64,000 bases of DNA from Parcubacteria group bacterium M10-OD1-1. GTDB lineage: Bacteria > Patescibacteriota > Minisyncoccia > Moranbacterales > UBA2206. The stretch is taken from positions 201,993 through 265,992 of the forward strand of contig LSNL01000003.1 in assembly GCA_003056145.1 (NCBI GenBank), written 5' to 3'. Shown here piece after piece: positions 4,805 through 44,332 of the stretch (position 1 is the stretch's first letter; every line of letters starts with the position of its first letter). The notes under the pieces are model-generated. The model searched no databases. It saw only the letters and a list, made by a program, of their open reading frames with translations, and was not told the DNA's origin. A program made the translations under genes and the position numbers.

Positions 4805-5779
4805 ATGCAATCAATATCACTTCCCAAAAAACCAAAATATACATCCATTGATGAAAAGACTAGCTCTTTTGAAATAGGTGGATGCTATCCAGGGTATGGA
4901 ACTACTTTAGGTAATGCCTTGAGAAGAGTTCTTTTATCTTCGTTGAGTGGCGCTGCTGTTACTTCAATTAAAATTAAAGGAATTAAGCATGAATTTTCTA
5001 CTATTCCTAATGTAGCAGAAGATGTAATTCAAATTATTCTTAATCTCAAACAAATTAGATTTAATTTACATACAGATGAAAGTGTAAAGGTTCTTTTAAT
5101 GGTTAAAGGAGAAAAAGAAGTAACTGCCAAAATGATTAAATGTCCTTCTAACATAGAAGTTGTTAATAAGGATGCTCATATTGCTACTATTACTAGTCCA
5201 AAGGGAGAGATTGAAATGGAAATTGAAATTTCGGGCGGTATTGGTTATGTTCCAGTTGAACAGCAAAAAAGAGAAAAAAAAGAAGTGGGAGTTATTGCTA
5301 TTGATGCTATTTATACTCCGATTAGAAGGGTGAATTATACTATTTCCAATATGCGGGTTGGTAAAAGAACTGATTTTGAAAAAATATTATTAGAAGTTGA
5401 AACTGATGGAAGCTTAGAACCAGTAGAAGCTTTTTCCCAAGCAGTAGAAATTCTAGTTAATCAATTTTCAGAGTTAAAAGCTATCCAAGAAGCTGAAGAA
5501 CCAGTAGAAGTTATTGAAGAAGAAAAAGAAGATATTAAGAAAGAAATTAAAGAAGAAGAAAAAGCTATTGATCCAAGAAAAATAGTAATAGTTGAATTAA
5601 AAAGTCTTTCTACTAGAACATTAAATTCTTTAGAAAAAGGAAAAATTAAAAATATAGGAGGGATTGTTGATTTAAATGAAGACGAGCTAGGTGAGTTAGA
5701 TGGAATGGGGGCTAAAGGAATTAAAGAAATTAAGAAAGCAGTTGGAGAGTTTGGATTAAATTTAAAAAAAAGAGATTAA
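4805..5779 (+). CDS. rpoA: DNA-directed RNA polymerase subunit alpha
   Basis: N-terminal dimerisation domain 'GYGTTLGNALRRVLLSSLSGAAVTSIKIKG' and C-terminal domain (aCTD) with helix-hairpin-helix; conserved position after rpsD. Confidence 0.9.
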   Translation: MQSISLPKKPKYTSIDEKTSSFEIGGCYPGYGTTLGNALRRVLLSSLSGAAVTSIKIKGIKHEFSTIPNVAEDVIQIILNLKQIRFNLHTDESVKVLLMVKGEKEVTAKMIKCPSNIEVVNKDAHIATITSPKGEIEMEIEISGGIGYVPVEQQKREKKEVGVIAIDAIYTPIRRVNYTISNMRVGKRTDFEKILLEVETDGSLEPVEAFSQAVEILVNQFSELKAIQEAEEPVEVIEEEKEDIKKEIKEEEKAIDPRKIVIVELKSLSTRTLNSLEKGKIKNIGGIVDLNEDELGELDGMGAKGIKEIKKAVGEFGLNLKKRD

Positions 5780-5834
5780 TAATCTGATTGATTTAAAATT
5801 AATATAAATCGGTAAAATAGTTCAATAAAGACCA

Positions 5835-6197
5835 ATGAAACATTTAAAAAAAGAAAGAGAATTAGGAAGAGTGAGAAGTCAAAGAAAAGCTTTGTTTAGA
5901 ACAATGCTTGGTAGTTTAATAATGCAGGAAAGAATTAAAACTACTGAAGCTAAAGCTAAAGAACTAAAGCCAAAGATGGATAAGCTAATTAATAAATCTA
6001 AAAAAACTCAAGATGCTACTAAGAAAGTGGCGGTGCTTAGAAATTTACGGAATGAAATACCAGCAATGGCAGTTAAAAAAATAACTGGAGAATTTTTAAA
6101 AAAGTTTGATGAACGGGATTGCGGATACACTAGAATTATTAAATTAGCTCCTAGAAAAAGCGATGGAGCTAAAATAGCTATTATAGAATTTGTCTAA
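5835..6197 (+). CDS. rplQ: 50S ribosomal protein L17
   Basis: 'LGRVRSQRKALFRTMLGSLIMQERIKTTEAKAKELKP' matches L17; follows rpoA. Confidence 0.9.
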   Translation: MKHLKKERELGRVRSQRKALFRTMLGSLIMQERIKTTEAKAKELKPKMDKLINKSKKTQDATKKVAVLRNLRNEIPAMAVKKITGEFLKKFDERDCGYTRIIKLAPRKSDGAKIAIIEFV

Positions 6198-6231
6198 TTC
6201 TTTATAATCTAAGTAAACTATAGTAAAATTT

Positions 6232-6630
6232 ATGGCAAAACAGATTAATAGAAAATATCATTTATTTGATGCAAAAAAAGAAATACTTGGAAGGTTAGCA
6301 ACAGAAATTGCTAAAGTATTAAGAGGTAAAAATAAAGTTGATTTTACTCCTAATATAGACGGGGGTGATTTCGTGGTGGTTATTGATTCTGATAAGCTAA
6401 GAGTTACTGGGAATAAATTAGAAGATAAGATGTACCATTACTATAGTGGTTATCCAGGAGGGATGAGAGATGTTAAACTAAAGGAAAAAATTGAAAAAGA
6501 TTCTCGAAAAGTAATTAGTGAAGCTGTCTATGGGATGCTTCCTAAAAATAAACTAAGAGATAGAATGATGACTAGACTTTTGGTCTATAAGGATAATGAA
6601 CATGATCATAAGATAGAAATAACCCATTAA
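6232..6630 (+). CDS. rplM: 50S ribosomal protein L13
   Basis: 'KYHLFDAKKEILGRLATEIAKVLRGKNKVDFTPNIDGGDFVVVI' matches L13. Confidence 0.9.
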   Translation: MAKQINRKYHLFDAKKEILGRLATEIAKVLRGKNKVDFTPNIDGGDFVVVIDSDKLRVTGNKLEDKMYHYYSGYPGGMRDVKLKEKIEKDSRKVISEAVYGMLPKNKLRDRMMTRLLVYKDNEHDHKIEITH

Positions 6631-6660
6631 ATTTTTGTATAATTTAAGTAAACAATTAGT

Positions 6661-7134
6661 ATGACAACAAAGAAAACTCAAGAAACCAAGGATATTAGCC
6701 AGGAAGTGAAAAAGGAAACTCAAGAAGAAAAAAAATCTTCCCGTTATTTCTATGCGATTGGTAGAAGGAAGACCTCTATTGCCAAAGTTAAACTTTTTCC
6801 AACTAAAACTTCTAAAAATGTAATTATTGTTAATGAAAGAAAAATAAATAATTATTTTCCTATTGTAAATCATCAGGATATTATTAATGCTCCTTTAGCT
6901 TTGACTGGAAAAGATGATAAATTTAAAGTAGTTATTAAAGTTGTCGGTGGAGGGGTAAGTGCTCAAGCTGAAGCGATAAGGTTGGGGATTGCTAGAGCTT
7001 TAGTAATTTTGGATAAAGACTTAAAGAAGGTTCTTAAAAGTGAAGGATTTCTCAAAAGAGATGCCCGAGAGGTTGAACGAAAGAAACCTGGTTTGAAAAA
7101 AGCTAGAAAATCACCTCAATGGGCTAAGCGTTAA
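6661..7134 (+). CDS. rpsI: 30S ribosomal protein S9 with ~27-aa N-terminal extension
   Basis: 'YFYAIGRRKTSIAKVKLFP' and C-terminal 'KKPGLKKARKSPQWAKR' match S9. Confidence 0.9.
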   Translation: MTTKKTQETKDISQEVKKETQEEKKSSRYFYAIGRRKTSIAKVKLFPTKTSKNVIIVNERKINNYFPIVNHQDIINAPLALTGKDDKFKVVIKVVGGGVSAQAEAIRLGIARALVILDKDLKKVLKSEGFLKRDAREVERKKPGLKKARKSPQWAKR

Positions 7135-7155
7135 ATTAAAAATTAGATTACTTTT

Positions 7156-7196
7156 AAAATCTCTGCCTGATTATTTAAGGTAGAGATTTTTATTTG
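7156..7196 (+). terminator. intrinsic terminator after rplM-rpsI
   Basis: 12-bp stem aaaatctctgcc/ggtagagatttt (one G-U), 11-nt loop, followed by tatttg T-rich tract. Confidence 0.5.
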
Positions 7197-7418
7197 AAGA
7201 AAACGAGTGTAAACTATTAGAATTTAATTAAATTCTAATTAAAAAATAAAATATTATTTAAAGTAATTAACAAGAAAAATTTAAAAATATAGTTGAATTT
7301 AAAATTAAATAAAACTAGGTAGAATGAAATAGCCAAAAAGTAGTTCTTTCAATTGCTAAGATTATTCTTTAGAATGAATTTTTATTAAAGTGGAAATAAA
7401 TTTAATTTACTCAAAAAT

Positions 7419-7447
7419 AAGATACTCAGTTAAAAACTGAGTATCTT
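7419..7447 (-). terminator. intrinsic terminator of rpmE (minus strand)
   Basis: Perfect 11-bp hairpin aagatactcag/ctgagtatctt with 7-nt loop. On the minus strand it is followed by ATTTTTGAG. Confidence 0.55.
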
Positions 7448-7467
7448 GATAGAAAAAATTTAAAAAA

Positions 7468-7776
7468 CTATTTTTTTTCAGCTGTAACTTTTTTAGTTGC
7501 AGTTTTTTTAGTTGCTTTTTTCTTTTTAGCTAAAGCTTGTTCGGTAGCTTTTTCAGTCTGAGCTTTCTTTTTAGCTGTTTTTTTGGTTAGATTTTTAAAT
7601 CTTTCTACTCGTCCAGTTGTATCCATAAGTTTCTTTTTGCCAGTATAAAGAGGATGACAAGCAGAACAAATTTCAATTTTCATTTCAGGAACAGTTGAAC
7701 CAGCTATGATAACATTACCGCAAGCACAAGTTATTTTGGCTTCAGTATAATATTTAGGATGAATATCTTTTTTCAT
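7468..7776 (-). CDS. rpmE: 50S ribosomal protein L31 with ~35-aa Lys/Ala-rich C-terminal tail
   Basis: '[10 protein letters not shown]' and '[13 protein letters not shown]' zinc-ribbon signature of L31. Confidence 0.85.
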
Positions 7777-11228: not shown

Positions 11229-11302
11229 GCCTGAATAGCTCAGTTGGTTAGAGCAACTGTTTTGTAAACAGTAGGTCGTCGGTTCGAATCCGACTTCAGG
11301 CT
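11229..11302 (+). tRNA. tRNA-Thr (anticodon TGT)
   Basis: Hand-folded cloverleaf: acceptor gcctgaa/ttcaggc, D arm gctc..gagc, anticodon stem actgt/acagt with loop tttgtaa, T arm gtcgg-ttcgaat-ccgac. No encoded CCA. Confidence 0.8.
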
Positions 11303-11325
11303 CAGTAATGATGGAATTTAATTAG

Positions 11326-11408
11326 GGGTCGGTGGCAGAGTGGTTAAATGCACCTGACTGTAAATCAGGCGACGTAAGTCTACGGCGGTTCAAATCCGTC
11401 CCGGCCCA
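11326..11408 (+). tRNA. tRNA-Tyr (anticodon GTA) with long variable arm
   Basis: Acceptor gggtcgg/ccggccc (one G-U), anticodon stem cctga/tcagg with loop ctgtaaa, long variable arm, T loop ttcaaat. Confidence 0.75.
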
Positions 11409-11463
11409 CATCAAGATTGTAAAAAGCAGGCTATTATTATAGATAGAGAACGGAGGTTTCTAC

Positions 11464-11536
11464 GCCGAGATAGCTCAGCTGGTAGAGCACGTCCATGGTA
11501 AGGACGGGGTCCCGGGTTCAAGTCCCGGTCTCGGCT
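11464..11536 (+). tRNA. tRNA-Thr (anticodon GGT)
   Basis: Acceptor gccgaga/tctcggc, D arm gctc-agctggtag-agc, anticodon stem cgtcc/ggacg with loop atggtaa, T arm ccggg-ttcaagt-cccgg. Confidence 0.8.
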
Positions 11537-22766: not shown

Positions 22767-24467
22767 ATGAATTTAAGGAAAAAACTTTTAATAAAATTTT
22801 ATTCAGTTATTTTATTAACCCTTATTGTGGGGGTGATTTCTTATCCTAAAATTATTTCTTTTGCCCCGCCAGCTTATAATCTTTTGAATAAAGTGAAAAT
22901 TCGTTTAGGATTGGATTTGCAAGGAGGTATTCACTTAGAATATAGAGCCGATCTTTCAAAAGTTAGCTTCAATCAAAAGAAAGAAGCTATGCAAGCGTTG
23001 CAGGATGTTATTGAAAGGCGAGTTAATGCTTTTGGCGTGGCTGAACCACTTATTTATACCACTAAATCAGGAGATAAAGAACATCTAGTTGTTGAATTAG
23101 CAGGAGTTAAAGATATAGATAAAGCGAAAGCAATGATTAAAGAAACTCCATTTTTGGAGTTTAAAAAAGAAAAAGCGGATCAAACAGTTCAAAAAATTCC
23201 ACCTAAAATTTTGGAAAAAATTAATGCTGAAAAAGAAAAAAGAGCTGAAAAAATTCTTCAAGAAGCTCTAGCGGGAAAAGATTTTAATCAGTTAGCTAAA
23301 GAAAATAGTCAAGATTCTGAATCTAAAAACAAGGGTGGTGACCTAGGTTTTATCAAAAAAGGCATGCTATTGCCAGCGGTAGAGAAAGTTGCTTTTGACC
23401 CTAATTTTAAAGATGGAACAATTTACCCTAAATTAGTAAAATCTATTTTTGGATGGCATATTATCAAGAAGATTGGTGAGCGGGGTCAAGGAAATTCACG
23501 AGAAGTTCATATTGCTCACATTTTAATTATGCTTGAAATGCAACCTCAGGCACAAACTCAATATGTGCCAACTGGTTTAACAGGGAAAGATTTAAAGAGT
23601 GCTAAGATGGAAATTCCACAACAAGGATTATCTGGTCCAGAGGTATCTTTAGAATTTAATAATCAAGGTACTAAATTATTTGCAGCGCTTACCAAAGATA
23701 ATATTGGTAAACGAGTAGCAATTTATTTAGACGGAAAGTTAGTTAGTGCACCTACTGTTCAAGCTGAAATTACTAATGGAAGGGCGGTTATTTCTGGAAA
23801 TTTTACAATAGCGGGAGCGAAAAAATTAGCTAACAGATTAAACGAAGGTGCTTTACCAGTTCCTATTCACTTAATATCACAACACAGCGTTGATGCTTCT
23901 CTAGGAGCAGAATCTTTTATTAAAAGTATTAAAGCTGGAGCAGTTGGTTTAGGTGTAGTAATAATTTTTATGATTTTCTATTATCGCTTTCTAGGTTTGA
24001 TAGCTTCAATAGCTCTTTTAATTTATACTGCCTTAATGGTTGCAATTTTTAAGCTATCCACCTTAACTCCTTGGTCAATTACTTTTACTCTCTCTGGGAT
24101 TGCGGGTTTTATTTTGTCTATTGGAATGGCTGTAGATGCTAATGTTTTGATATTTGAAAGAACTAAAGAGGAATTAAAGAAAGGGAGAAATGTCCTAGGT
24201 TCTATTGAGGAAGGTTTTAATAGAGCTTGGCCGAGTATTCGGGATGGTAACTATTCTACTATCATTACCTCAATTATTTTAATTGGAGTGGGTACGGGAT
24301 TTGTCAAAGGTTTTGCTATTATTTTAGTTATTGGAGTTTTAGTATCAATGTTTACCGCGATTATTATAGTAAAAACAATTTTAGAATTTACAGTTGGCGA
24401 TTGGTTAGAAAAAAGAGTTTGGCTGATTGCTAGGGTTGAAAATAAAACTAACGAAGAAAATAAATGA
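22767..24467 (+). CDS. secD: protein translocase subunit SecD carrying an inserted parvulin-type PPIase-like domain in the periplasmic head
   Basis: SecD signatures 'LGLDLQGGIHLEYRA' and 'AIYLDGKLVSAPTVQAEITNGRAVISGNFT', plus 6 C-terminal TMs. Residues ~160-250 'GKDFNQLAKENSQDSESKNKGGDLGFIKKGMLLPAVEKVAFD...FGWHIIKK' closely parallel E. coli PpiC. Confidence 0.85.
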   Translation: MNLRKKLLIKFYSVILLTLIVGVISYPKIISFAPPAYNLLNKVKIRLGLDLQGGIHLEYRADLSKVSFNQKKEAMQALQDVIERRVNAFGVAEPLIYTTKSGDKEHLVVELAGVKDIDKAKAMIKETPFLEFKKEKADQTVQKIPPKILEKINAEKEKRAEKILQEALAGKDFNQLAKENSQDSESKNKGGDLGFIKKGMLLPAVEKVAFDPNFKDGTIYPKLVKSIFGWHIIKKIGERGQGNSREVHIAHILIMLEMQPQAQTQYVPTGLTGKDLKSAKMEIPQQGLSGPEVSLEFNNQGTKLFAALTKDNIGKRVAIYLDGKLVSAPTVQAEITNGRAVISGNFTIAGAKKLANRLNEGALPVPIHLISQHSVDASLGAESFIKSIKAGAVGLGVVIIFMIFYYRFLGLIASIALLIYTALMVAIFKLSTLTPWSITFTLSGIAGFILSIGMAVDANVLIFERTKEELKKGRNVLGSIEEGFNRAWPSIRDGNYSTIITSIILIGVGTGFVKGFAIILVIGVLVSMFTAIIIVKTILEFTVGDWLEKRVWLIARVENKTNEENK

Positions 24468-31785: not shown

Positions 31786-31880
31786 GACCTTATTTACAAA
31801 AAGTTAATTTTATGGTAAGGTTTCAGGTGGTTTAAAAAGTGAAATTTTAAGAAATAAAGTAGTTCTTTTAATACTTATCA

Positions 31881-32204
31881 AGGTAAATTGAGTAGTCGCT
31901 CCAGTTTTTGGAGAGGAAAGTCCGGACATTCAGCCTAATCTTAATTGGCAAGGGTAGCGGGTAACTCCCGTCTAGAGTAATCTAAGAGGTGCGAGCAGAG
32001 ACGCTTCCTTCAGAAATGAAGAAGCACCCTTTTGGGGTGAGCTCTAATAGTAATATTAGAGGTGAAACGGCAAAATCCTTACCTGAATGCAAGGTCGTGT
32101 TCTATTTTTGAATAAAATATAGAAAGTGCCGCGCGAGGTTTTAAGTAATTAAAACCCAAGATAAATGACTACTCACGACAAAATCCGGCTTATAGATTTA
32201 CCTT
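31881..32204 (+). ncRNA. rnpB: RNase P RNA (bacterial type, compact)
   Basis: CR-I 'GAGGAAAGTCCGGAC', CR-II-like 'AGAGGTGAAACGGC', CR-V 'GACAAAATCCGGCTTAT' (P4 halves). Terminal P1 pairing aggtaaattgagtagtc / gactactc...atttacct. Confidence 0.8.
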
Positions 32205-32260
32205 GATAAATATCAAAAGAATTAAAAACTAAATTAAGTAAAATTAGAAATAAGATTATT

Positions 32261-34958: not shown

Positions 34959-36419
34959 TTATAAGTAAAAACGAGGGAGAATAAAATTAAAAATTATATA
35001 AAAACAAAAAGAAAACATTAAGATAAATCCAGTAAGAAGAATATTTTTAAAATAGCGCTCCTTTTTCAATAACATGCCCAAGCCAACAAAAACCAAAATA
35101 AGATGAGAAGCTAAATTAGGTAAGAAATATCTTCCGGGTGTGCCGAGAGTTAATCGATGGAAACTTATAAAAACTTTCCAATCGTAAGTCCGAATACCTA
35201 GCTGTAAGGCAATAATCATTAATAATAAAAAAATAATATATTTTTTATCGGGTAAATAATGAGGTATTTTTTTAGTCCAGAAAAATAAAACTAAACCTAG
35301 CACAGATAAGGTTTCTATCCAAAAAATTAAATTAGTAAAATTATGAGTAAGCCAATTACTCTTCCAACTTAAACTACCCCAATAAGTACGAGAAGATAAA
35401 GCAAAACGACCCATACTCAAGCTAGTATCAAGATATTTTTGTAAAGAGGAAAAAGTTTGAGTTGGAGTACCTTCGAAAGGCAAAAGTCCTCTTAGATTAT
35501 ACTGAGTGTTAGCTAGAAAAGTGAGAGTGATTAAAAAAACGAAAAAAAGAGATAAATAGTAGCCTAAATGTCGTTGGCGCTTTATTTTTTGATAGCTATG
35601 AAAAGCGATTAAAAAAATAAAAGCTATCAAAAGAACAATAGCTGTTCCTTTGGTTAATAAACCTAAGATTAGAGCAATCAGCATTAGAGTAAAATTTTTC
35701 CAGTTTAATCCTTGTTTTAAACTTAAAATGCCACCTAAAGTAAAAAGAAAAAAGAGAGGAATGAGTAAAACATCATAATTGATGTTAGTAAAATACATGG
35801 TAAATTTAGGCTGGAAAGCTAGTATAGCGCTTAAAATTAGGCTGTAGTCCCTTTTTAAACCGATATTAATAGCAATTAGGTAACTTAGGAAAACAGCCAG
35901 AGTACCCAAGAAAACAGAAAAAATTCTGATCAAATAAAATCTTACTAGAATATTACTACTAGAAAAAGTTTTTTCTATCCAAGAGGCGAGTGTATGATAA
36001 AGAGTATGGGTAGCGGTATCGGCTGGATAATAATAATTAAGGGGCTTCCATTGAGAAGCGCTGATAGAATTTTCATTTTGACCGATATAGCCAGGGACGA
36101 AATTGGCGGTATTATATAAACCTTTGCGAATTATATTAAGGTTGCTAGCTTCTCCAGCGTGGATTATTTCTTGGGAAAAATTATAATTCTCAATCTGTTT
36201 ATTTTTGTGTCCAATTCGGCGTTTGATTTTTTGAGCAGAAGGAACGCTGGGATAAGAAATGGATTGAATAGTATTATAGTGTCGGGCTTCATCTTGTCCA
36301 GTAAAAAGAGGATAAAGTGTAGCCAAAAAAACGCCTTTCAAAAAAAAGACACTTAAAATTAAAAGTAAAATAACTTTTGTTTTTTGGAAAGATTTTAATT
36401 TAAATAACCATTTTTGCAT
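34959..36419 (-). CDS. polytopic membrane protein, putative GT-C-fold glycosyltransferase (ArnT/PMT-like)
   Basis: ~12 TMs. Acidic 'TGQDEARHY' motif in the first extracytoplasmic loop, as in GT-C enzymes. Confidence 0.45.
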   Translation of the reverse strand: MQKWLFKLKSFQKTKVILLLILSVFFLKGVFLATLYPLFTGQDEARHYNTIQSISYPSVPSAQKIKRRIGHKNKQIENYNFSQEIIHAGEASNLNIIRKGLYNTANFVPGYIGQNENSISASQWKPLNYYYPADTATHTLYHTLASWIEKTFSSSNILVRFYLIRIFSVFLGTLAVFLSYLIAINIGLKRDYSLILSAILAFQPKFTMYFTNINYDVLLIPLFFLFTLGGILSLKQGLNWKNFTLMLIALILGLLTKGTAIVLLIAFIFLIAFHSYQKIKRQRHLGYYLSLFFVFLITLTFLANTQYNLRGLLPFEGTPTQTFSSLQKYLDTSLSMGRFALSSRTYWGSLSWKSNWLTHNFTNLIFWIETLSVLGLVLFFWTKKIPHYLPDKKYIIFLLLMIIALQLGIRTYDWKVFISFHRLTLGTPGRYFLPNLASHLILVFVGLGMLLKKERYFKNILLTGFILMFSFCFYIIFNFILPRFYL

Positions 36420-36697
36420 AAATTTAGTATACTATATTTGATTAAACCTGTCATTTCAGCATCTCAGGGAGAGTAGCACTAATATAGGAAAAGGATGACA
36501 AGTTTAATCTTTACGAATACCTAAATATAAAAAATTGATGCTTTTTAAATCCATTGTTATAATGAAAATATGAAAAAAATAAATGACAATAAAAAAATAG
36601 AAAAAGTTTTCTCATCTAATGAATTCTTTTTTGTTTTCTAGGAAAACAGTAAGTTTATGCTATAGATGAGTGATATTTTTGGATAAAAATAAAAAAG

Positions 36698-36706
36698 TGC
36701 TATAAT
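36698..36706 (+). promoter_or_regulatory. candidate extended -10 promoter (TGcTATAAT) for the AbrB-like gene
   Basis: TG at 36698-36699, TATAAT at 36701-36706. Confidence 0.4.
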
Positions 36707-36717
36707 AAATACGTATT

Positions 36718-36743
36718 TAACTCTGTATTTAAATACAGAGTTA
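36718..36743 (+). promoter_or_regulatory. perfect 26-nt palindrome taactctgtatttaaatacagagtta between promoter and AbrB-like gene; operator or leader hairpin/attenuator
   Basis: Perfect inverted repeat read from the sequence, followed by TTATTTTTT. 20 nt upstream of the ATG at 36763. Confidence 0.5.
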
Positions 36744-36762
36744 TTTTTTAAAAATAAAAAAT

Positions 36763-36945
36763 ATGAGTAGAAAATCTTTAGGGCAAAGAAGTGTTAGAAA
36801 ACTGGGTAAAGTCGGTGGCGGAACATCATATTCTGTTACTTTGCCAATTGAAATTATAAGAGAATTTAGGTGGAAAGAAGGTCAAAAACTTGTAATTAAG
36901 AAGTATGGAAAGAATAAAATTGTAATTGAGGATTGGAAAAAGTAA
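36763..36945 (+). CDS. AbrB/MazE-family (SpoVT_AbrB swapped-hairpin) small DNA-binding protein, 60 aa
   Basis: 'VRKLGKVGGGTSYSVTLPIEIIREFRWKEGQKLVIKKYGKNKIVIED' matches the AbrB-N pattern (R-K-[LV]-x-x-G-x-x-x-[IV]-P-x-E-[IL]-R-x-x-x-x-I-x-x-G-D-x-[LV]). Confidence 0.6.
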   Translation: MSRKSLGQRSVRKLGKVGGGTSYSVTLPIEIIREFRWKEGQKLVIKKYGKNKIVIEDWKK

Positions 36946-37127
36946 AATACAAGCAACCAATGATTGCTATTAGAATATAAAAAAATGGTAAGCGAATATA
37001 TTAGAATAGATAAAAAACAATAGAGTATCAGGACAAAAAATTAATATTTACCGAAGCCGAGCCTGCTCAGTATTTGTAGATAGTATATAATTTCAGTAGT
37101 AATAATTCAAAAAAGTATTTTATTAAC

Positions 37128-38060
37128 ATGAGAAAAAATGATTTTAAAATTTCAATCGTGATTCCAGTTCTCAATGAAGAATTAAATATTGCGGAGCTAT
37201 TTTCTAAATTGAAGCCATTTTTAGAAACATATTTTAATTACGAAGTAATTTTTGTTGATGATGGGAGTACTGATAATACCCTTAAAATTATTAACGATTT
37301 AAGAAATAAAAATGATAAGGTGAAATATCTTTCTTTTTCCAGGAATTTTGGACATCAAAATGCTCTTCGTGCTGGCATGCGATATACAACAGGGGGGTGT
37401 GTCATTTCAATGGATGCTGATATACAACATCCACCAGAATTAATCCCAAAAATGATTAAAAAATGGCAAGAAGGATATGAAATTGTTTATACTGTACGTA
37501 AGGATAGCAATAAAAATTCTTTTTTCAAGAAAAAAACATCGGATATTTTCTATGGTATACTGTCGAGGCTTTCCGATGTAAGAGTGCCTAAAGGTGCGGC
37601 GGATTTTCGTTTATTAGATCGTTCAGTAGTTGATATAATTTCTCAGTTAAAAGAAAATACATTATTCTTGCGTGGAATGATTGCATGGTTAGGGTTTAAA
37701 CAATATGCTATTGAATATAATCCCGGAGAGCGATTTGCTGGTGAGACTAAATATTCTATAAGAAAAATGGTATCCTTAGCATTAAATGGTATTACATCTT
37801 TCAGTATAAGACCACTAAGGTTGGCTACTTATTTAGGATTTACAATTGCCTCGCTATCTTTTTTATATGCGGCTTATGCAGTTTACCTTAAAATTTTTAC
37901 TGATAAAGTGATTTCTGGTTGGACATCAGTGCTAGTTAGTGTTTTATTCTTATCAGGCATTCAGCTGATAACGTTTGGAATCATGGGTGAATATATAGGA
38001 AAGTTATTTATAGAATCAAAAGGTCGTCCTAGCTATATAATAAAAGAAAAGAAGTTATGA
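37128..38060 (+). CDS. GT2 polyprenyl-phosphate glycosyltransferase (GtrB/ArnC/Dpm1-like) with two C-terminal TMs
   Basis: 'ISIVIPVLNEELNI...FVDDGSTDNT...DADIQHPPELIPKMI' and C-terminal TM pair. Confidence 0.8.
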   Translation: MRKNDFKISIVIPVLNEELNIAELFSKLKPFLETYFNYEVIFVDDGSTDNTLKIINDLRNKNDKVKYLSFSRNFGHQNALRAGMRYTTGGCVISMDADIQHPPELIPKMIKKWQEGYEIVYTVRKDSNKNSFFKKKTSDIFYGILSRLSDVRVPKGAADFRLLDRSVVDIISQLKENTLFLRGMIAWLGFKQYAIEYNPGERFAGETKYSIRKMVSLALNGITSFSIRPLRLATYLGFTIASLSFLYAAYAVYLKIFTDKVISGWTSVLVSVLFLSGIQLITFGIMGEYIGKLFIESKGRPSYIIKEKKL

Positions 38061-39373
38061 ATTTTTTTCAATCTAGCAAGAAAAATAAAATAATTTCTCT
38101 AATTATTTTTGTTGCTATCTTTTTTGCAATATTTTTTATCAATAATAAAACTCCAATTTATTCTGATGATTGGGCTTTTTATGTTTCTTATCAAAATCAA
38201 AGAATACAATCAGTCAACGATGTTTTTTCTTCGATAAAATATTTTTATTTGCATGTCAATGGTAGAAGCGTGGCTAATTTAATCGTTGTCTTATTCGCTT
38301 TTTTAGGGAAAAATATATTCAATTTTTTCAATACTTTAATGTTTATCCTCCTGGGTTGGGAAATTTATTTTTTTGCTAGTGACGGAAAAAAAATAAAACC
38401 TCTGGGACTACTGGCTGTATTTATTCTACTTTGGTTTTTAAGTCCTTCTCCAAATCAAACTCTTTTTTGGATGTGTGGAGCAGTAGTCTATTTATGGATG
38501 GCAGTACTTACTCTTCTATTTTTAATTCCGTTTCGCGGATTTTTTTTGAAAAATAAAAAATTTATAAAAGACAACCAGCTGGGTGTTTTTTTGATGTTTG
38601 TTCTTGGAATTTTAGTTGGAAATTCTCATGAAATTATAGTGCCAGCAGTGTTTCTAGTTATATTATTTGCTGGATATATTCTTTTTAAAAAAAGAAAGAA
38701 AATTTCAAAGTGGGCAATTAGTGGATTTATCGGGTTTATGATTGGTGCCATTATTCAATTCTTTGCACCAGGTAACTATGTAAAACTTAATCATACACTT
38801 GGTAGTAAAGGATTTTTCCAATTATCTTCAGGATTCCATCGGGTTCTAGAAAAAATATCGGCATATCAAATTGTTTTGTGGGAAATAGTTGGGGTGATAG
38901 TATTTCTATATGTAATTAATAAAATCTATTTCAAATTTAGAAAGAAAATTATGGATTCATTTATGCTATTATTAATAATAGTTGCTTTTTTTCTGGATGT
39001 TTTAGGAATATTTTTCCCCTACTTTCCGCCCAGGGCGTTTTTTTTCAGTAATGTAGCTTTAATAATTTTTATAAGTAGGTTTTTATTGAATAATGAATTT
39101 AAATTAGTAAAAACACTAGGTATAATTATTTTAATTCCAGCTTTTATTCTGTCTATGGAAACATCAATGAATAAAGCTAATATTTTATATAAACAGTATC
39201 AAAAGAGAGATGAGTCTATATTAAAACAAAAATTTCAAGGTAAACAAAATATAACGGTTAAAAAAATTAAAAGGGTTAAAAATAAAATATTACTCAATGA
39301 ACCTCTATTACCTCATTCTAAAAATGTTTGGGCTAGTCGATTCTACGGAGTAGATAGTATTAAATTAAATTAA
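38057..39373 (+). CDS. polytopic membrane protein, putative GT-C-like glycosyltransferase or polymerase
   Basis: ~11 TMs. 'IYSDDWAF' acidic motif after TM1. 4-nt overlap with upstream GT2. Confidence 0.4.
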   Translation: MNFFQSSKKNKIISLIIFVAIFFAIFFINNKTPIYSDDWAFYVSYQNQRIQSVNDVFSSIKYFYLHVNGRSVANLIVVLFAFLGKNIFNFFNTLMFILLGWEIYFFASDGKKIKPLGLLAVFILLWFLSPSPNQTLFWMCGAVVYLWMAVLTLLFLIPFRGFFLKNKKFIKDNQLGVFLMFVLGILVGNSHEIIVPAVFLVILFAGYILFKKRKKISKWAISGFIGFMIGAIIQFFAPGNYVKLNHTLGSKGFFQLSSGFHRVLEKISAYQIVLWEIVGVIVFLYVINKIYFKFRKKIMDSFMLLLIIVAFFLDVLGIFFPYFPPRAFFFSNVALIIFISRFLLNNEFKLVKTLGIIILIPAFILSMETSMNKANILYKQYQKRDESILKQKFQGKQNITVKKIKRVKNKILLNEPLLPHSKNVWASRFYGVDSIKLN

Positions 39374-39384
39374 ATTTTAAAAAT

Positions 39385-39714
39385 ATGCTTAATTACATAC
39401 TAATTTTATTAGGAATAATAACAAGTGCTTTGGCACAAGTGATGTTAAAAAAATCAAGCGAGTTTTCATTTTTTAAAGAATATAATTTCTTTATTTTCTT
39501 TATTTTGGGCGGATTGTTTTATATTATTTCTTTCGGTTTATATGCCTACATTTTAAAAATATTTGATATTAGTAAAATTAGTCCAGTAATGACTATTGGG
39601 GTAATGGTAATAGTTGTAGCATCTGGGATATTATTTTTTAAAGAAACTCTCTCATTAATTCAATCAGTTGGTATCATATTAGGTGTAATATCTATAATAT
39701 TAATTTTAAAATGA
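39385..39714 (+). CDS. small 4-TM SMR/DMT-like protein (ArnE/ArnF-like candidate polyprenyl-P-sugar flippase subunit)
   Basis: 109 aa, four TMs, 'LGIITSALAQVMLKK' resembles EamA/ArnE. Confidence 0.45.
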   Translation: MLNYILILLGIITSALAQVMLKKSSEFSFFKEYNFFIFFILGGLFYIISFGLYAYILKIFDISKISPVMTIGVMVIVVASGILFFKETLSLIQSVGIILGVISIILILK

Positions 39715-39722
39715 CATAACAA

Positions 39723-41282
39723 ATGCAAAAAAAACATAAATATATCGCGCTTATAGTATTTATTTCTATTTGGTTCGGAATAGCAGTTTTTAGTGGTTCA
39801 GTCTTTTCTGGATATCACTTAACAGATGATCATGAAATAGTTAGAATTAAAAAGGATTTAAGCTCTCAAACAACAATGCAAGTTGCGGGAAAGTGGATGA
39901 GACGGGACCAATTTTCTACGCATAGATTTAGACCATTTTATTTTTTACATAGAGTGATTGAAACAAGAATATTCGGTTCTAATTTTGTAATCTGGTCAGT
40001 CTATACAATTATTCTAGCTATTGCAACTTCTTTTTTACTATTTTATTTTTTATCGCTTGTTGGTTTTTCTTTTTGGGAGTCTTTTCTATTTTCAGAAATT
40101 TCTTTAATTGGTCCACAAGCTCAAATTTGGTGGCGTCTAGGACCTAATGAAACTATTGGAATGTTCATGCTGGCTGTTTCACTGCTCTTTCTTGGTTTAT
40201 ATTATAATTCGCAAAAAAATGAACGGATATTGAAAATACTATTTATAATATTTTCAATCCTAATGGCTTTATCGAAGGAGAGTTTTATTCTTATTCTTCC
40301 AGCATTTATTCTGATTTTAACTTATCTTTCAAAGATGAAAAATCAAATTTCTTGGAAAAAAGTGTTTCAAGAAAATTATATAAGCATTAGTATTTTGATG
40401 GGTGTATTTATTGGATTTCTTCTGTATATTAAAAATTTAATAGGAATGGCTGGCATAGGATACGCCGGAATTAATGGGTTTCAACCAGAAAAATATATTA
40501 AAACTTTTTTAAATTTATCAACTAAAAGTTGGATAGATTATCTTATTTTTATTCAATTAATTTTAATAATATTGTTTATTTTCTTAAAAGGATTAAGTAA
40601 ACAAAATATTTGGAAAATAGTAAGGAAGTATTTATTGGTAACTACTATTTTTTTAGCTATTGTTATTCCTCAGGTTATTCTTTACACTAAATCCGGATTT
40701 AATAAGAGATATTTACTGCCATCAATGTTGGGTTATTCATTCATTTTCGTTTATTTGCTCAAACAGATGAGAAAAAAGACACTTATTATTTGGAGTGGAA
40801 TAGTTTTTGTAAGTTTATTCTTTCTTCTCGGTAATTTAAGAAGCGATTTCAAAAATGCTCAAGAGTTTACTCAGAGAGGAAAAGCTATCAATGGCGTCTT
40901 TAATATTATTAAGATAAAAACATCCCCAACGGACAATATACTTATTGTTGGTGATCCAATAATGTATTATGAATGGTCAGATTCAATAAACTATTACTTA
41001 AAAAATGAGTTAAGTAGGAAAAATCTTTTTATATACCCGCTATTTAGAAAAAAACTATCTTCCTATTCTGTTTTTGGTAGAAATTTAATAAAAGGGTTTG
41101 GAAAAATTTATGGAAAAAATAGATATGAGAATATTAAGAATGAGAGTATAATTGATACAATTGTGTTATTTCCCAGAATGGAAAAAACTTTCTTGAAGAA
41201 TTTTTCAGATATTGGTTTGCTGAAGAGTGATTTTACTGAGAAAAGCTCTGGTAGATACGTAATTTATTATAAGAATAAGTAA
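39723..41282 (+). CDS. polytopic membrane protein with C-terminal soluble domain, putative GT-C-like glycosyltransferase
   Basis: ~10 TMs. 'GYHLTDDHEIV' acidic motif after TM1. Confidence 0.4.
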   Translation: MQKKHKYIALIVFISIWFGIAVFSGSVFSGYHLTDDHEIVRIKKDLSSQTTMQVAGKWMRRDQFSTHRFRPFYFLHRVIETRIFGSNFVIWSVYTIILAIATSFLLFYFLSLVGFSFWESFLFSEISLIGPQAQIWWRLGPNETIGMFMLAVSLLFLGLYYNSQKNERILKILFIIFSILMALSKESFILILPAFILILTYLSKMKNQISWKKVFQENYISISILMGVFIGFLLYIKNLIGMAGIGYAGINGFQPEKYIKTFLNLSTKSWIDYLIFIQLILIILFIFLKGLSKQNIWKIVRKYLLVTTIFLAIVIPQVILYTKSGFNKRYLLPSMLGYSFIFVYLLKQMRKKTLIIWSGIVFVSLFFLLGNLRSDFKNAQEFTQRGKAINGVFNIIKIKTSPTDNILIVGDPIMYYEWSDSINYYLKNELSRKNLFIYPLFRKKLSSYSVFGRNLIKGFGKIYGKNRYENIKNESIIDTIVLFPRMEKTFLKNFSDIGLLKSDFTEKSSGRYVIYYKNK

Positions 41283-41391
41283 GTTTTAACCAAAGAATAA
41301 ATTTCCAAAATTGTTCTCAAATCGGTGTGATAGATTTTGATGGATGAGTGTTAAAATGAAATTACAGAGCTAATTCTGTAGTTAGTGATAA

Positions 41392-41499
41392 ACTAAAAAT
41401 TATAGTACTAGTCAAGAAAAAAGTTTTAGCGAAAAAGAAAAAACAGTGAAAAAATATGGAAAAGAGAAAAGGATAATAATTAAGGATTGGAAAGAATAA
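41392..41499 (+). pseudogene. 3' remnant of an AbrB-like mini-gene (encodes ...VKKYGKEKRIIIKDWKE*; no start codon)
   Basis: 41446-41499 is 51/54 nt identical to 42906-42959. Frame is closed by TAG TGA TAA upstream; no ATG. Confidence 0.55.
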
Positions 41500-41837
41500 A
41501 ATAATGGTTGCTCTATTTAAAGAAAAATCAATGTTTTTAGCACAAGTATTGGCAGAAAGAATTTTGGGCTCTGGAGAATTTAATGAATACACTATAGCCA
41601 TTGCTATTTCCTGAATGGTGGTAATTTTTTCGGTTTTTGGTATGGATACAGGGATGGTAAAAAGTCAAAGTTTATGATGATGTCAAAAAAATATTGAGAC
41701 AAGACTGCTAGAAGTCCTTTTATTTGAATCGAAATGCTATAGGTGTTAGAATAAATAATGTAAAAAAGACAAGTGAAGTTTCGAATTAGTAGGTATAATT
41801 TTAAATAAAAAAGTAAATTCTTAATAATATATAAACT

Positions 41838-42815
41838 ATGAAGAAAAAAGCGCTCATTACAGGAATTTTAGGTCAAGATGGTCCGTATCTTGCCAAATTA
41901 CTATTAGGGAAGGACTATGAAGTTTATGGACTTATAAGGCGCTATGCCAATCCAAATTTTAGTAACACTGATTATCTTGGGATTACGGATAAAATAAATT
42001 TTATATCAGGAGATATGACAGATGAGGCATCAATAATTAACATTATAAAAGCTATCCATCCAGATGAGGTATATAATTTAGCTGCGCAATCTTTCGTGGG
42101 CGTATCATGGGATCAATCGAAAGTCACGACTGAAATAAATGCACTTGGAGTTCTTTATTTACTTAACGCAATTAAATATTTTTCTCCGACAACAAAATTT
42201 TATCAGGCATCAACTAGCGAGATGTTTGGAAATAGTCATATCGAGGGGTTGCAAACAGAAGAAACTCCCTTTTATCCAAGAAGTCCATATGCCATTGCCA
42301 AGCTCTATGCCTATTGGATAGTGATTAATTTCAAGGAAAGCTATGGAATGTATTGTGCTAATGGGATTCTTTTTAATCATGAATCTCCCATTAGAGGAAT
42401 GGAATTTGTTACAAGGAAAATAACAGATGGCGTAGCTAGGATAAAATTAGGACTGTCTAAAGAAATATATCTTGGAAATCTTGATAGCAAGCGAGATTGG
42501 GGGTTTGCCGGAGATTACGTAGAAGCGATGTGGCTTATGCTACAGCAAGAAAAACCAGACAACTATATTATTTCTACGGGAGAGACTCATTCAGTCAGAG
42601 ATTTTTTAGACATCGCTTTTAAATATGCTGGTATTGATAATTGGGAGAAATATGTAAAACTAGACCCTCGGTTTAGAAGACCAGCCGAATTGTTTTCGCT
42701 ACACGGAAAGAATGATAAGGCAAGGGAAGTTTTAGCGTGGGAGCCAAAAGTTAAATTTAATGAGTTGGTTAAAATGATGATGGAAGCAGATTTAAAAAGG
42801 TTGTCAGTAAAGTAG
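41838..42815 (+). CDS. gmd: GDP-mannose 4,6-dehydratase
   Basis: 'KKALITGILGQDGPYLAKLLLGKDYEVYGLIRR' Rossmann N-terminus and SDR catalytic region typical of Gmd. Confidence 0.9.
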   Translation: MKKKALITGILGQDGPYLAKLLLGKDYEVYGLIRRYANPNFSNTDYLGITDKINFISGDMTDEASIINIIKAIHPDEVYNLAAQSFVGVSWDQSKVTTEINALGVLYLLNAIKYFSPTTKFYQASTSEMFGNSHIEGLQTEETPFYPRSPYAIAKLYAYWIVINFKESYGMYCANGILFNHESPIRGMEFVTRKITDGVARIKLGLSKEIYLGNLDSKRDWGFAGDYVEAMWLMLQQEKPDNYIISTGETHSVRDFLDIAFKYAGIDNWEKYVKLDPRFRRPAELFSLHGKNDKAREVLAWEPKVKFNELVKMMMEADLKRLSVK

Positions 42816-42959
42816 CAAATTATAATTTGTGGAACATCATATTTTATTACTTTGTCAGCTGACATTATTCGTGAGTTTGATTGGCGTGAAGGGCAGAAAT
42901 TAGTAGTGAAAAAATATGGAAAAGAGAAAGGGATAATAATTAAGGATTGGAAAGAGTAG
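42816..42959 (+). pseudogene. N-terminally truncated AbrB-like paralog (47 codons, no ATG), contiguous in-frame after the gmd TAG stop
   Basis: Encodes 'CGTSYFITLSADIIREFDWREGQKLVVKKYGKEKGIIIKDWKE', ~70% identical to the C-terminal 42 aa of the 36763 protein. Possible TTG/ATT starts only. Confidence 0.5.
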
Positions 42960-42976
42960 GCCATCTGATTTTTTTT

Positions 42977-44332
42977 ATGGAAAAGTATATAAAAATTTTT
43001 ATTCCAGAGATTATCTGGAATAAGATTGATAAAAATCCAGAGCTTAAAAAAATATTAGCCAATCTTAATTGGCTATTTCTTGATAAAGCAATTCAGCTAG
43101 TGATAGCTTTTTTTGTAGGAATCTGGGTTATTCGGTATTTGGGTCCAGAGCGATACGGAATGCTGAGCTATGCAGTAGCATTTGTTTCATTGTTTGGTTT
43201 TATTGCATCGATGGGAATAAATGGAATTGCTGTTCGTGAATTCGTAAAAAATAAAAATAGAGAAGATGAACTCTTTGGGACACTATTCTTTCTTAAGCTA
43301 ACGGCTGGATTTTTAGCATTTATTAGCTCATGGGTTGTTATTTTTTTTGTAAAACCTGGTAATAGTTTAATTTTTTGGTTAGCTTTTATTATTGCCTTAG
43401 GTTTCATTTTTAAGGTATCGGATATCTTTGATTTTTGGTTTCAATCTAAAGTGATCTCAAAATATACGGTATATGTAAAAAGTTCAATCAGTATTATCAT
43501 TGGAGCAATAAAAGTAGTTTTAATTTTAGAAAGAGCTTCTTTAATTGCTTTTGCCTGGGTTATTTTATTAGAATCTGTAGTAACTCTCATTGGATTTATT
43601 TATATATATATTAAAAAGAAAGGAAATCTTACTATTCTAAAAATAAGCGTTCCTATTGGAAAAAAAATCTTATCAGATAGTTGGCCATTAATGTTATCAA
43701 GTATAGCAGTTACTGTGTATATGAAAATTGATCAAGTTATGATTGGTAATATGCTTGGTAATAAATCGCTTGGAATTTATTCTGCTGCTGTTTCATTGAG
43801 TGAAGTATGGTTTTTTATACCAATAATAATAACAACTTCTGTATTTCCAGCAATAATTTATGCGAAAAAAAAGAGTATAGATATATATAAAAATAGGTGG
43901 CAATCTCTTTATGATATCATGGTTTGGTTATCGATTATAATTATTTTACCAATAAGTTTATTTTCAAAAGATATAGTCAATATATTGTTTGGAATAAAGT
44001 ATGTTCAATCATCTAGCGTCTTATCTATTTATATATGGTCATCTATTTTGGTATTTTCTGGTGTGGTAGGAGAAAAATTTTTAGTTGCTGAAAATATAGC
44101 GAAAATATCTCTTCTGAAAAATATTATGGGCGGGATAATTAATATAATACTTAATTTGTGGTTAATTCCTAAATATGGGATAATTGGAGCAGCATGGGCT
44201 ACTGTAATTTCTTATATGGTTTCTTTTGCTGGTCTTGTCATTTGGAAAAGAACAAGAATAAATATTAAATTATTTTTAAATGCATTTAATTTAATTAGAA
44301 TATATAAGGATAATAAAAAATTAATAATTTGA
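42977..44332 (+). CDS. Wzx-like polysaccharide flippase (MOP superfamily)
   Basis: ~12 TMs; 'LDKAIQLVIAFFVGIWVIRYLGPERYGMLSYAVAFVSLFGF' typical Wzx/RfbX N-terminus. Start taken at the second ATG, clear of the upstream remnant. Confidence 0.75.
   Translation: MEKYIKIFIPEIIWNKIDKNPELKKILANLNWLFLDKAIQLVIAFFVGIWVIRYLGPERYGMLSYAVAFVSLFGFIASMGINGIAVREFVKNKNREDELFGTLFFLKLTAGFLAFISSWVVIFFVKPGNSLIFWLAFIIALGFIFKVSDIFDFWFQSKVISKYTVYVKSSISIIIGAIKVVLILERASLIAFAWVILLESVVTLIGFIYIYIKKKGNLTILKISVPIGKKILSDSWPLMLSSIAVTVYMKIDQVMIGNMLGNKSLGIYSAAVSLSEVWFFIPIIITTSVFPAIIYAKKKSIDIYKNRWQSLYDIMVWLSIIIILPISLFSKDIVNILFGIKYVQSSSVLSIYIWSSILVFSGVVGEKFLVAENIAKISLLKNIMGGIINIILNLWLIPKYGIIGAAWATVISYMVSFAGLVIWKRTRINIKLFLNAFNLIRIYKDNKKLII

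Follow-up and report, generated by a model that had tools for sequence, protein, structure and literature searches.

The present analysis concerns a stretch of 64,000 nucleotides (nt) of contig LSNL01000003.1 from Parcubacteria group bacterium M10-OD1-1, hereafter called the window, and within it a small gene, abrB1 (copy 1), that encodes a protein of 60 amino acids (aa). This gene precedes a block of glycan genes, and two relics of similar genes (pseudo-abrB2 and pseudo-abrB3, or copies 2 and 3) lie further along the same strand, on either side of gmd. The locus reads: (i) promoter/operator, abrB1, GT2, DUF6056, EamA and a 519-aa protein, (ii) promoter/operator, pseudo-abrB2 and a pseudo-wzx fragment, (iii) gmd, and (iv) pseudo-abrB3, wzx, MT, GT4 and the genes that follow. 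We consider it fairly probable that abrB1 is an autoregulated, stand-alone leader gene for a DNA-binding protein of AbrB fold, and that copies 2 and 3 are pseudogene relics of a second paralogue, i.e. scars of the addition or replacement of modules by recombination.

The product of abrB1, which reads MSRKSLGQRSVRKLGKVGGGTSYSVTLPIEIIREFRWKEGQKLVIKKYGKNKIVIEDWKK in the open reading frame (ORF) listing of the region, scores 30.8 bits against Pfam PF04014 (MazE_antitoxin, the SpoVT/AbrB domain), above the gathering score (GA) of 24.7. Its AlphaFold2 model, based on an alignment of 21 homologues (predicted local distance difference test, pLDDT, of 76.7), has the order beta-beta-alpha-beta-beta, with strands predicted at residues 14-17, 22-25, 43-48 and 52-57 and a helix at residues 29-35. 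When this model was compared to the PDB with Foldseek, the best matches were AbrB, SpoVT, MazE, Sso7c4, C56/C68 and VapB (template modelling (TM) scores of 0.63-0.70, root mean square deviations of 1.3-2.6 Å), and the top 11 PDB matches all belong to the SpoVT/AbrB superfamily. A search of the PDB by sequence gave only marginal matches (E 0.17-0.7), to AbrB and to chains named "addiction module antidote". The Pfam score, the predicted topology and the structural matches thus bear out the AbrB/MazE swapped-hairpin assignment that an earlier note on this DNA had proposed: abrB1 belongs, as modelled, to the SpoVT/AbrB superfamily, with a beta1-beta2-alpha-beta3-beta4 swapped-hairpin fold. The protein consists of this domain alone, with zero residues past the N-domain, and most likely forms dimers or tetramers and binds DNA. 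A role as a global transition-state regulator of AbrB type was rejected, since the protein is devoid of the C-terminal oligomerisation domain and its score against NCBIfam TIGR01439 (AbrB; 16.7 bits) lies below the cutoff of 28.3. The score against TIGR02609 (doc_partner; 14.9 bits) is also below its cutoff (55.9).

Upstream of abrB1, a promoter-like sequence with an extended -10 box is followed by a perfect palindrome (Table 1) that starts 11 nt past TGcTATAAT and ends 19 nt ahead of the ATG. Part of this promoter, TGCTATAAT, recurs in two relatives (L093 and L012; loci carrying members of the family are designated by such L numbers). Generic promoter and terminator scans were uninformative at 30% GC, and an Rfam scan for RNA elements in the spacers revealed none, its only hits being RNase P and three tRNAs located elsewhere. 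Many genes of the family have a palindrome or repeated 7-mers within the ~75 nt that precede them, located past a -10-like box and ahead of the ATG. Of 72 upstream regions of family genes, 40% contain a perfect inverted repeat whose stem is 10 or longer, compared to 3.2% for 469 other ORFs of the same loci and 0% in shuffled sequences. Furthermore, the 7-mer half-site differs among members and tracks the beta1-beta2 loop of the protein, with at least five loop/half-site classes among the family loci L013-L180: (i) KVGGG(K/T)(T/S)Y with TACAGAG/CTCTGTA, (ii) RKLTK.GK(K/Q)S with TACGTAA, (iii) ERK..NGSYR with GACCCAG, (iv) IRKVYKKSGSY with GGTACC, and (v) YKHS.SY with TGTACA. The TACAGAG/CTCTGTA half-sites are present upstream of most genes that encode the GGG(K/T)(T/S)Y loop and have a free upstream region. 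This covariation suggests a simple recognition code, and it indicates that the palindrome at 36718-36743 is most likely the operator of abrB1 itself, with a predicted autoregulation by its product. The view that this palindrome is a putative binding site of the 60-aa protein is thus strengthened by the upstream palindromes of many family members and by their covariation with the protein loop. In this scheme, abrB1 would be transcribed from the extended -10 promoter, and its product, as a dimer or a tetramer, would bind between this promoter and the ATG, which would control abrB1 as well as the same-strand glycan genes behind it.

A word-based search recovered 22 homologues of 56-76 aa, and a profile search of 1.84 billion (1.84e9) representatives yielded 537 clusters at E <= 1e-3 (192 at the stricter E <= 1e-10), most of them of about 56-65 aa. 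A locus scan restricted to one genome per species, with a narrower family alignment as query, provided 80 loci, most of them from metagenome-assembled genomes (MAGs) of Patescibacteria, or candidate phyla radiation (CPR), including Moranbacteria, Parcubacteria, Saccharibacteria and others, and some bearing other taxonomic labels; several genomes harbor two or three family loci each. In the alignment, the members have 56-61 aa, end in ..DWKK right after beta4 and share ten invariant residues (R12, K13, T26, P28, I29, W37, Q41, K42, D57 and W58). A search of the literature on AbrB/SpoVT in CPR did not yield any paper about this family.

The downstream neighbour lies on the same strand in 72 of 83 cases (80 genome loci). 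Downstream genes match 94 Pfam families, including restriction-modification (R-M) methylases and endonucleases, Fic, DUF5656 and housekeeping functions, and the upstream neighbours are equally mixed (98 Pfam families); Schlafen/AlbA and GIY-YIG also occur among the neighbours, about 15% of which match R-M or defence models. Given this spread, a glycan specificity of the whole family was rejected. The glycan link is limited to the GGG-loop subfamily, in which approximately 14 of the 19 determinable downstream genes encode GT2 (L013/L103, L102, L120 and copy 1 of the window), GT4 (L025, L125, L132), wzx (L094, L095/L096, L086 and copy 3 of the window), a sulfotransferase (L131) or an APS kinase (L111, L113), non-glycan cases being few. 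Members of this subfamily typically head modules of wzx or glycosyltransferase genes, and copies 1, 2 and 3 of the window all fit the description of such leaders, i.e. a same-strand glycan gene directly downstream and an operator of TACAGAG type. In L095/L096, which are among the closest relatives, a minus-strand PMT gene is followed by abrB and, after a gap of 8 nt, by wzx, which corresponds to the layout of the window minus everything between copy 1 and wzx; gaps between abrB and wzx are 4-8 nt in L094, L095 and L096. Between these lineages, the leader gene shows 67-73% aa and ~76% nt identity, compared to only 24-28% for PMT and wzx. Paralogues within one CPR genome are 77-82% similar at the nt level, only across the operator and the gene.

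The two other copies in the window, whose positions along with that of abrB1 agree with those given previously, are relics of different anatomy. Copy 2 retains an extended -10 box (TGtTAAAAT, 41349-41357), an operator remnant (TACAGAGCTAATTCTGTA, 41363-41380) with one mutated half-site, and a start region (CAAGAAAAAA, ~41405-41445) whose ATG is gone; its interior codons ~13-43 are deleted, and its tail (41446-41499) encodes 17 aa, VKKYGKEKRIIIKDWKE, followed by the stop. The 106 nt ahead of this tail (41340-41445) align with the promoter, operator and start of full-length genes (z of 8.2 for L094, 6.9 for L014 and ~6 for L015/L016 versus shuffles), gapped alignments reveal the internal deletion and the family hidden Markov model (HMM) matches positions 38-59. 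The description of copy 2 as an 18-codon tail was therefore right about the tail but incomplete, as remnants of the promoter, operator and start precede it. Copy 3 has no start codon and lies in frame after the TAG of gmd. It shows 69% aa identity with residues 20-60 of abrB1 (tblastn E 3e-15), in keeping with the start-less paralog of ~70% identity noted before, and scores 16.2 bits against PF04014, below GA, as expected of a truncated pseudogene. Because R12 and K13 are absent and the invariant columns P28 and I29 carry S and A, copy 3 is regarded as a pseudogene; its closest full-length relatives are L093 and L014. Copies 2 and 3 both belong to an L014-like subtype (tail ..KYGKxxRIIIxDWKE before the stop, operator TACAGAGC-N4-CTCTGTA located 5 nt past the -10 box), whereas abrB1 is of an L093-like subtype (operator CTCTGTA-N5-TACAGAG). 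These differing subtypes indicate that the locus once held two different paralogues.

The only segment that both relics still share is a direct repeat of 54 nt, whose arms (41445-41498 and 42905-42958) are identical at 52 of 54 positions with a spacing of 1460 nt; the value of 51/54 reported earlier is correct for the register then used. The match (blastn E 1.7e-20 within the window) is not due to chance, and its longest exact stretches are 25 and 25 nt. The downstream arm begins 91 nt after the gmd stop, close to the ~90 nt first stated, but the upstream arm extends from 392 to 338 nt ahead of the gmd ATG, instead of lying 362 nt away. Both arms were found on one contig, 100% identical to the window, in Logan contigs from SRR32234002, SRR6439372 and SRR14803397 and in NCBI contig VAPK011304686.1; as several independent contigs carry both, an assembly artefact is excluded. 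Searches by tblastn and blastn found no further abrB copy in the 64-kb window.

Table 1. Features of the abrB1-gmd-wzx region of the window, and partial or disrupted family copies in other CPR loci.
Feature	Sequence	Coordinates	Strand	Basis
Portable promoter-operator-gene cassette, approximate extent	window	36664-36972	+	shared with L012; contig ends
abrB1 promoter: -35-like TTGGAT (36679-36684), 16-nt spacer, extended -10 TGcTATAAT (36698-36706)	window	36679-36706	+	read from sequence; putative function
Operator-like perfect palindrome TAACTCTGTATTTAAATACAGAGTTA, 11-bp stem, between -10 and ATG	window	36718-36743	+	putative site, from sequence
abrB1 (copy 1), intact 60-aa stand-alone SpoVT/AbrB-fold ORF, putative leader regulator	window	36763-36945	+	Pfam, AlphaFold2, Foldseek, homologues
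Module A: GT2 (GtrB-like, 310 aa), DUF6056/GT_STM0557 (438 aa), EamA/SMR-like small membrane protein (109 aa), 519-aa membrane protein	window	37128-41282	+	Pfam, gene calls
pseudo-abrB2 (copy 2)	window	41349-41499	+	alignment to full-length family genes, HMM
Upstream arm of the 54-nt direct repeat	window	41445-41498	+	52/54 identical to 42905-42958
pseudo-wzx fragment: "36-aa ORF" and continuation past the in-frame TGA at 41613-41615	window	41505-41647	+	tblastx, tblastn
gmd, GDP-mannose 4,6-dehydratase, full length, 325 aa	window	41838-42815	+	Pfam GDP_Man_Dehyd, 408.9 bits
pseudo-abrB3 (copy 3), 5'-truncated, homology from 42831 (codon 20), includes downstream repeat arm	window	42816-42959	+	tblastn, Pfam
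Resident wzx flippase, 451 aa, head of an MT-GT4-GT4 block	window	42977-44332	+	Pfam Polysacc_synt
Duplicated head fragment, 90% nt identity	L042	4767-4814 versus 5016-5186
Frameshifted copy	L061	5998-6165
Partial copy	L076	11603-11692
abrB-like gene of the same subfamily in pieces, 84-aa GIY-YIG endonuclease ORF between, wzx downstream	L086 (Patescibacteria UBA2773)	5575-7546

The short stretch behind copy 2 (41531-41647) shares 41% identity, including the RxLG motif, with residues 51-89 of the wzx product of L094 (tblastx E 5e-4 against all loci; also found by tblastn), whereas neither tblastn nor tblastx detected any similarity to the resident wzx. Thus, the statement that each copy lies immediately 5' of a glycan gene applies to copy 1 (GT2) and copy 3 (wzx), but copy 2 precedes a wzx pseudogene fragment and not gmd. 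We read gmd as placed between the dead head of an abrB-wzx module and the truncated head of a live one. A truncation of gmd at the junction was rejected, since its homologues (identity up to 88%) mostly have 323-330 aa. The idea that gmd is the usual travelling partner of abrB was also rejected, as two close homologues lie in glycan operons devoid of any abrB-like neighbour. A Gmd-AbrB3 read-through fusion was set aside, considering that the chance of being in frame is 1 in 3, that the stop is TAG and that the downstream part is devoid of beta1. No partner gene for gmd (fcl, rmd or per, encoding a GDP-4-keto-6-deoxymannose reductase, epimerase or aminotransferase) was observed among the scanned ORFs, and the next step of the pathway must be encoded elsewhere or be unusual. 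A 125-aa ORF on the minus strand (42587-42964), antisense to the 3' end of gmd and to copy 3, is very likely spurious in this AT-rich DNA.

Within Module A, the trio at 37128-39714 (GtrB-like GT2, DUF6056/GT_STM0557 and the 109-aa EamA/SMR-like protein) resembles a glycan-modification operon of gtrABC type. Modules of this type are phage-borne in enterobacteria. Three observations concern the wider surroundings: (i) a bacterial class A RNase P RNA is located at 31880-32208, just upstream of the glycan cluster, (ii) three tRNA genes are clustered at 11229-11536, and (iii) a SecD homologue (22767-24467) carries a PPIC-type peptidyl-prolyl isomerase domain (residues ~145-235) inserted near its P1 domain, an unusual fusion.

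We propose that modules headed by abrB-like leader genes would have been joined by recombination in or at the leader gene, the only well-conserved DNA there. The route could have involved one homologous and one illegitimate end, with deletions afterwards, and redundant module heads would have decayed through deletion: pseudo-abrB2 would have kept its promoter, operator and start and lost its interior, with a dead wzx fragment behind it, and pseudo-abrB3 would have lost its promoter and its first ~19 codons, with a live wzx behind it. Codon ~17-20 of copy 3 directly follows the gmd stop, an abrupt junction that looks like an illegitimate join. One of the two suggestions of the earlier note, namely that gene cassettes were joined beside copies of a small regulator gene, holds in outline, as such a gene stands, or once stood, at the head of all three blocks; the closest relatives display the simpler arrangement of PMT, abrB and wzx described above. 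An integrative element of att type was rejected since the order of the fragments is reversed, with the 3' fragment upstream of the 5'-truncated copy, and since none of the ORFs of 32261-62893 was found to contain an integrase or recombinase domain.

Several points weigh against this explanation. With respect to the operator, three subfamily members located within operons (L120, L125 and L132) show no obvious palindrome. Moreover, the palindrome and the T-run behind it (36718-36753) also match the pattern of a terminator or attenuator; a comparable T-run is not evident behind the palindromes of the other listed family members. A gap of 182 nt and a promoter-like sequence precede GT2, which makes co-transcription of this gene with abrB1 uncertain. 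With respect to the relics, the homology of the head of copy 2 is based on a short stretch rich in A, in which more than one reading frame is conceivable. The two tails are 96% identical and are then followed by unrelated wzx sequences, which would require either a presumed crossover inside abrB or a presumed later gene conversion.

Other explanations of the relics were considered. A single duplicative insertion of gmd, of Campbell type or by replication-template switching, could have split one abrB-wzx unit in situ, the relics being halves or duplicates of one gene. The deletions are indeed complementary (promoter, head and tail in copy 2, body and tail in copy 3), and both the near identity of the tails and the direct contact between the gmd stop and copy 3 would fit. 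However, the wzx remnant that follows copy 2 is no duplicate of the resident gene and resembles that of L094; therefore, at least the wzx parts derive from different alleles, and we regard such a duplication as rather unlikely. It is also conceivable, although we hold this only tentatively, that the relics are kept for their cis signals, which would be compatible with the recombination of leader-headed modules: gmd would be expressed from, or regulated through, the promoter and operator of copy 2, on whose TACAGAG site AbrB1 would act in trans, and wzx would have its native upstream context in the tail of copy 3. Copy 2 retains TGtTAAAAT and, spaced much as in L014, one intact TACAGAG half-site, the loop of AbrB1 is of the type paired with TACAGAG, and abrB ends 4-8 nt ahead of wzx in relatives; however, the second half-site is mutated (TTCTGTA), ~480 nt that include the dead wzx fragment separate the promoter of copy 2 from gmd while promoter-like sequences lie nearer, and no TACAGAG regulon emerges in the window, where 7 sites were observed versus 4.3 expected, i.e. 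no enrichment. Remnants of toxin-antitoxin systems, i.e. antitoxins of AbrB/MazE type whose toxins were lost, would account for the name of the best Pfam family, the weak matches to "addiction module antidote" chains and doc_partner, and the presence of Fic/Doc among the downstream neighbours (3 of 82). This reading is hardly credible, considering that no toxin-like ORF adjoins any copy in the window (GT2, the wzx fragment and wzx lie downstream), that the proteins end right after beta4, devoid of a toxin-binding tail, that only three of the neighbours are Fic whereas 94 downstream Pfam families occur across the 82 family loci, and that the doc_partner score is far below its cutoff.

The other suggestion of the earlier note was that recombination between the repeats could delete or swap gmd. 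In this case, a RecA-mediated crossover between the arms would delete or re-insert the 1460-bp gmd segment, resulting in a population that varies in 6-deoxyhexose decoration. The repeats do bracket gmd, and a crossover would leave a tidy unit of promoter, operator, abrB head and tail, and wzx. However, the same arrangement was found in all eight gmd contigs and all six wzx contigs, which represent at least five samples and two strains, the exact matches extend over only 25 and 25 nt, and no branch-like contig breaks were seen at the downstream repeat. The second strain (GCA_003056095.1) is 99.9% identical to the window, with 20 differences (34670, a cluster at 35021-35118, 36469, 36488 and 52615), none of which affects the copies or gmd. 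No strain or assembly without gmd between the repeats was thus found among these contigs, a shallow sampling of nearly clonal strains. This evidence goes against the suggestion, an active switch is very unlikely, and the 54-nt repeat looks like an inert scar. As a separate observation, 16 of the 20 strain differences lie within ~100 nt (35021-35118) of a PMT-like gene on the minus strand, which looks like a short imported recombination tract.

A near-identical cassette is also present elsewhere in the same metagenome. The contig of L012 (VAPK010382458.1, 330 nt, VAPK metagenome) matches the window from ~36664 to 36956, where the contig ends, and has unrelated sequence further upstream (unique 5' part: CGGAAACCGTCCATCGGCGG). 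Its coding sequence differs from abrB1 by three synonymous and no non-synonymous changes and therefore encodes an identical protein; it has the same promoter, one operator half-site that reads TACATAG, and the same 3' flank up to the contig end. Furthermore, 36972 is the last position of four independent contigs and 36943 the first of three, with an overlap (k-1) of 30; the 30-mer at these recurrent breaks (TAAAATACAAGCAACCAATGATTGCTATTA, 36943-36972) begins at the abrB1 stop codon. The breaks at 36972 are attributed to the second copy of the cassette in another context, and together the match of L012 and the shared contig ends point to a portable unit of ~36664-36972. In the family at large, the promoter, operator and gene would likewise move jointly, as a unit of ~300 nt. 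Decay and partial duplication recur in the family, as illustrated by the copies of L042, L061, L076 and L086 (Table 1), and ORFs of GIY-YIG type are among the commonest upstream neighbours (3 of 81). A broader possibility, which we put forward with reserve, is that this unit of ~300 nt (extended -10 box, palindromic operator and 60-aa AbrB-fold repressor) is a portable, self-regulating cassette of CPR bacteria. With many orthogonal loop-operator specificities, it would sit at the 5' border of modules that are exchanged horizontally, among them those for glycans, R-M and Fic, and, being the only well-conserved DNA there, would serve as a homology anchor for swaps; the relics around gmd, the split copy of L086 and L012 would be its footprints.

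The genomes of CPR/Patescibacteria are tiny and encode few transcription factors that can be recognised, and their surface-glycan loci are highly variable. To our knowledge, almost nothing is known about the regulation or the exchange of these loci. This work exposes a compact family of CPR regulators in which the putative operator of each member is legible from the sequence, and the correspondence between loop and half-site gives directly testable predictions. Members of the GGG-loop subfamily mark the heads of wzx and glycosyltransferase modules and could aid the annotation of glycan modules in MAGs. The relics around gmd would record the assembly of a CPR glycan cluster from separate modules at leader genes; as a gmd switch, the form in which they were originally framed, their importance is limited, since they are a pair of ordinary pseudogene relics.

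Several known systems can be compared to abrB1 and its family. The N-terminal domains of AbrB, Abh and SpoVT, the transition-state regulators of Bacillus, have the same predicted fold (Foldseek matches 1yfb and 2w1t, TM 0.65-0.68) and are likewise small DNA-binding modules for which dimers or tetramers are expected. However, AbrB carries a C-terminal multimerisation domain and recognizes degenerate sites over a large regulon, whereas the family described here has sharp palindromic putative operators upstream of its own genes. MazE/VapB/Phd-like antitoxins share the fold, autoregulation through upstream palindromes and a frequent location on mobile or variable DNA, but they bind a toxin through a C-terminal tail and are followed directly by the gene for this toxin; neither such a tail nor a toxin gene is found here. 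Sso7c4 from Sulfolobus and C68/C56 of pSSVx/pSSVi are also stand-alone AbrB-fold proteins of ~55-68 aa, some of them on mobile elements (Foldseek matches 2l66, 3o27 and 7xi6); they differ in being archaeal, and their relationship to abrB1 is undetectable in sequence beyond the fold. We know of no operator-loop covariation or association with glycan loci for them. The controller (C) proteins of R-M systems offer a functional analogy, in that they are small DNA-binding proteins, autoregulated through a palindromic operator of their own, that travel with an accessory gene module; they are of helix-turn-helix type and share no homology with abrB1. Finally, upxY/upxZ of Bacteroides and the galF/gnd or cpsA-D flanks of O-antigen and capsule loci likewise place a conserved gene at the 5' edge of variable glycan blocks. 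As in these flanks, the genes that follow the abrB leader are far less conserved than the leader itself, which would be a natural homology anchor for module exchange, but the proteins are unrelated (NusG-like antiterminators, metabolic genes) and exchange at abrB is deduced from the relics only. Overall, by analogy, the nearest counterparts of abrB1 appear to be the archaeal and plasmid proteins of stand-alone AbrB fold as regards form, and R-M controllers or the leaders of polysaccharide loci as regards role.

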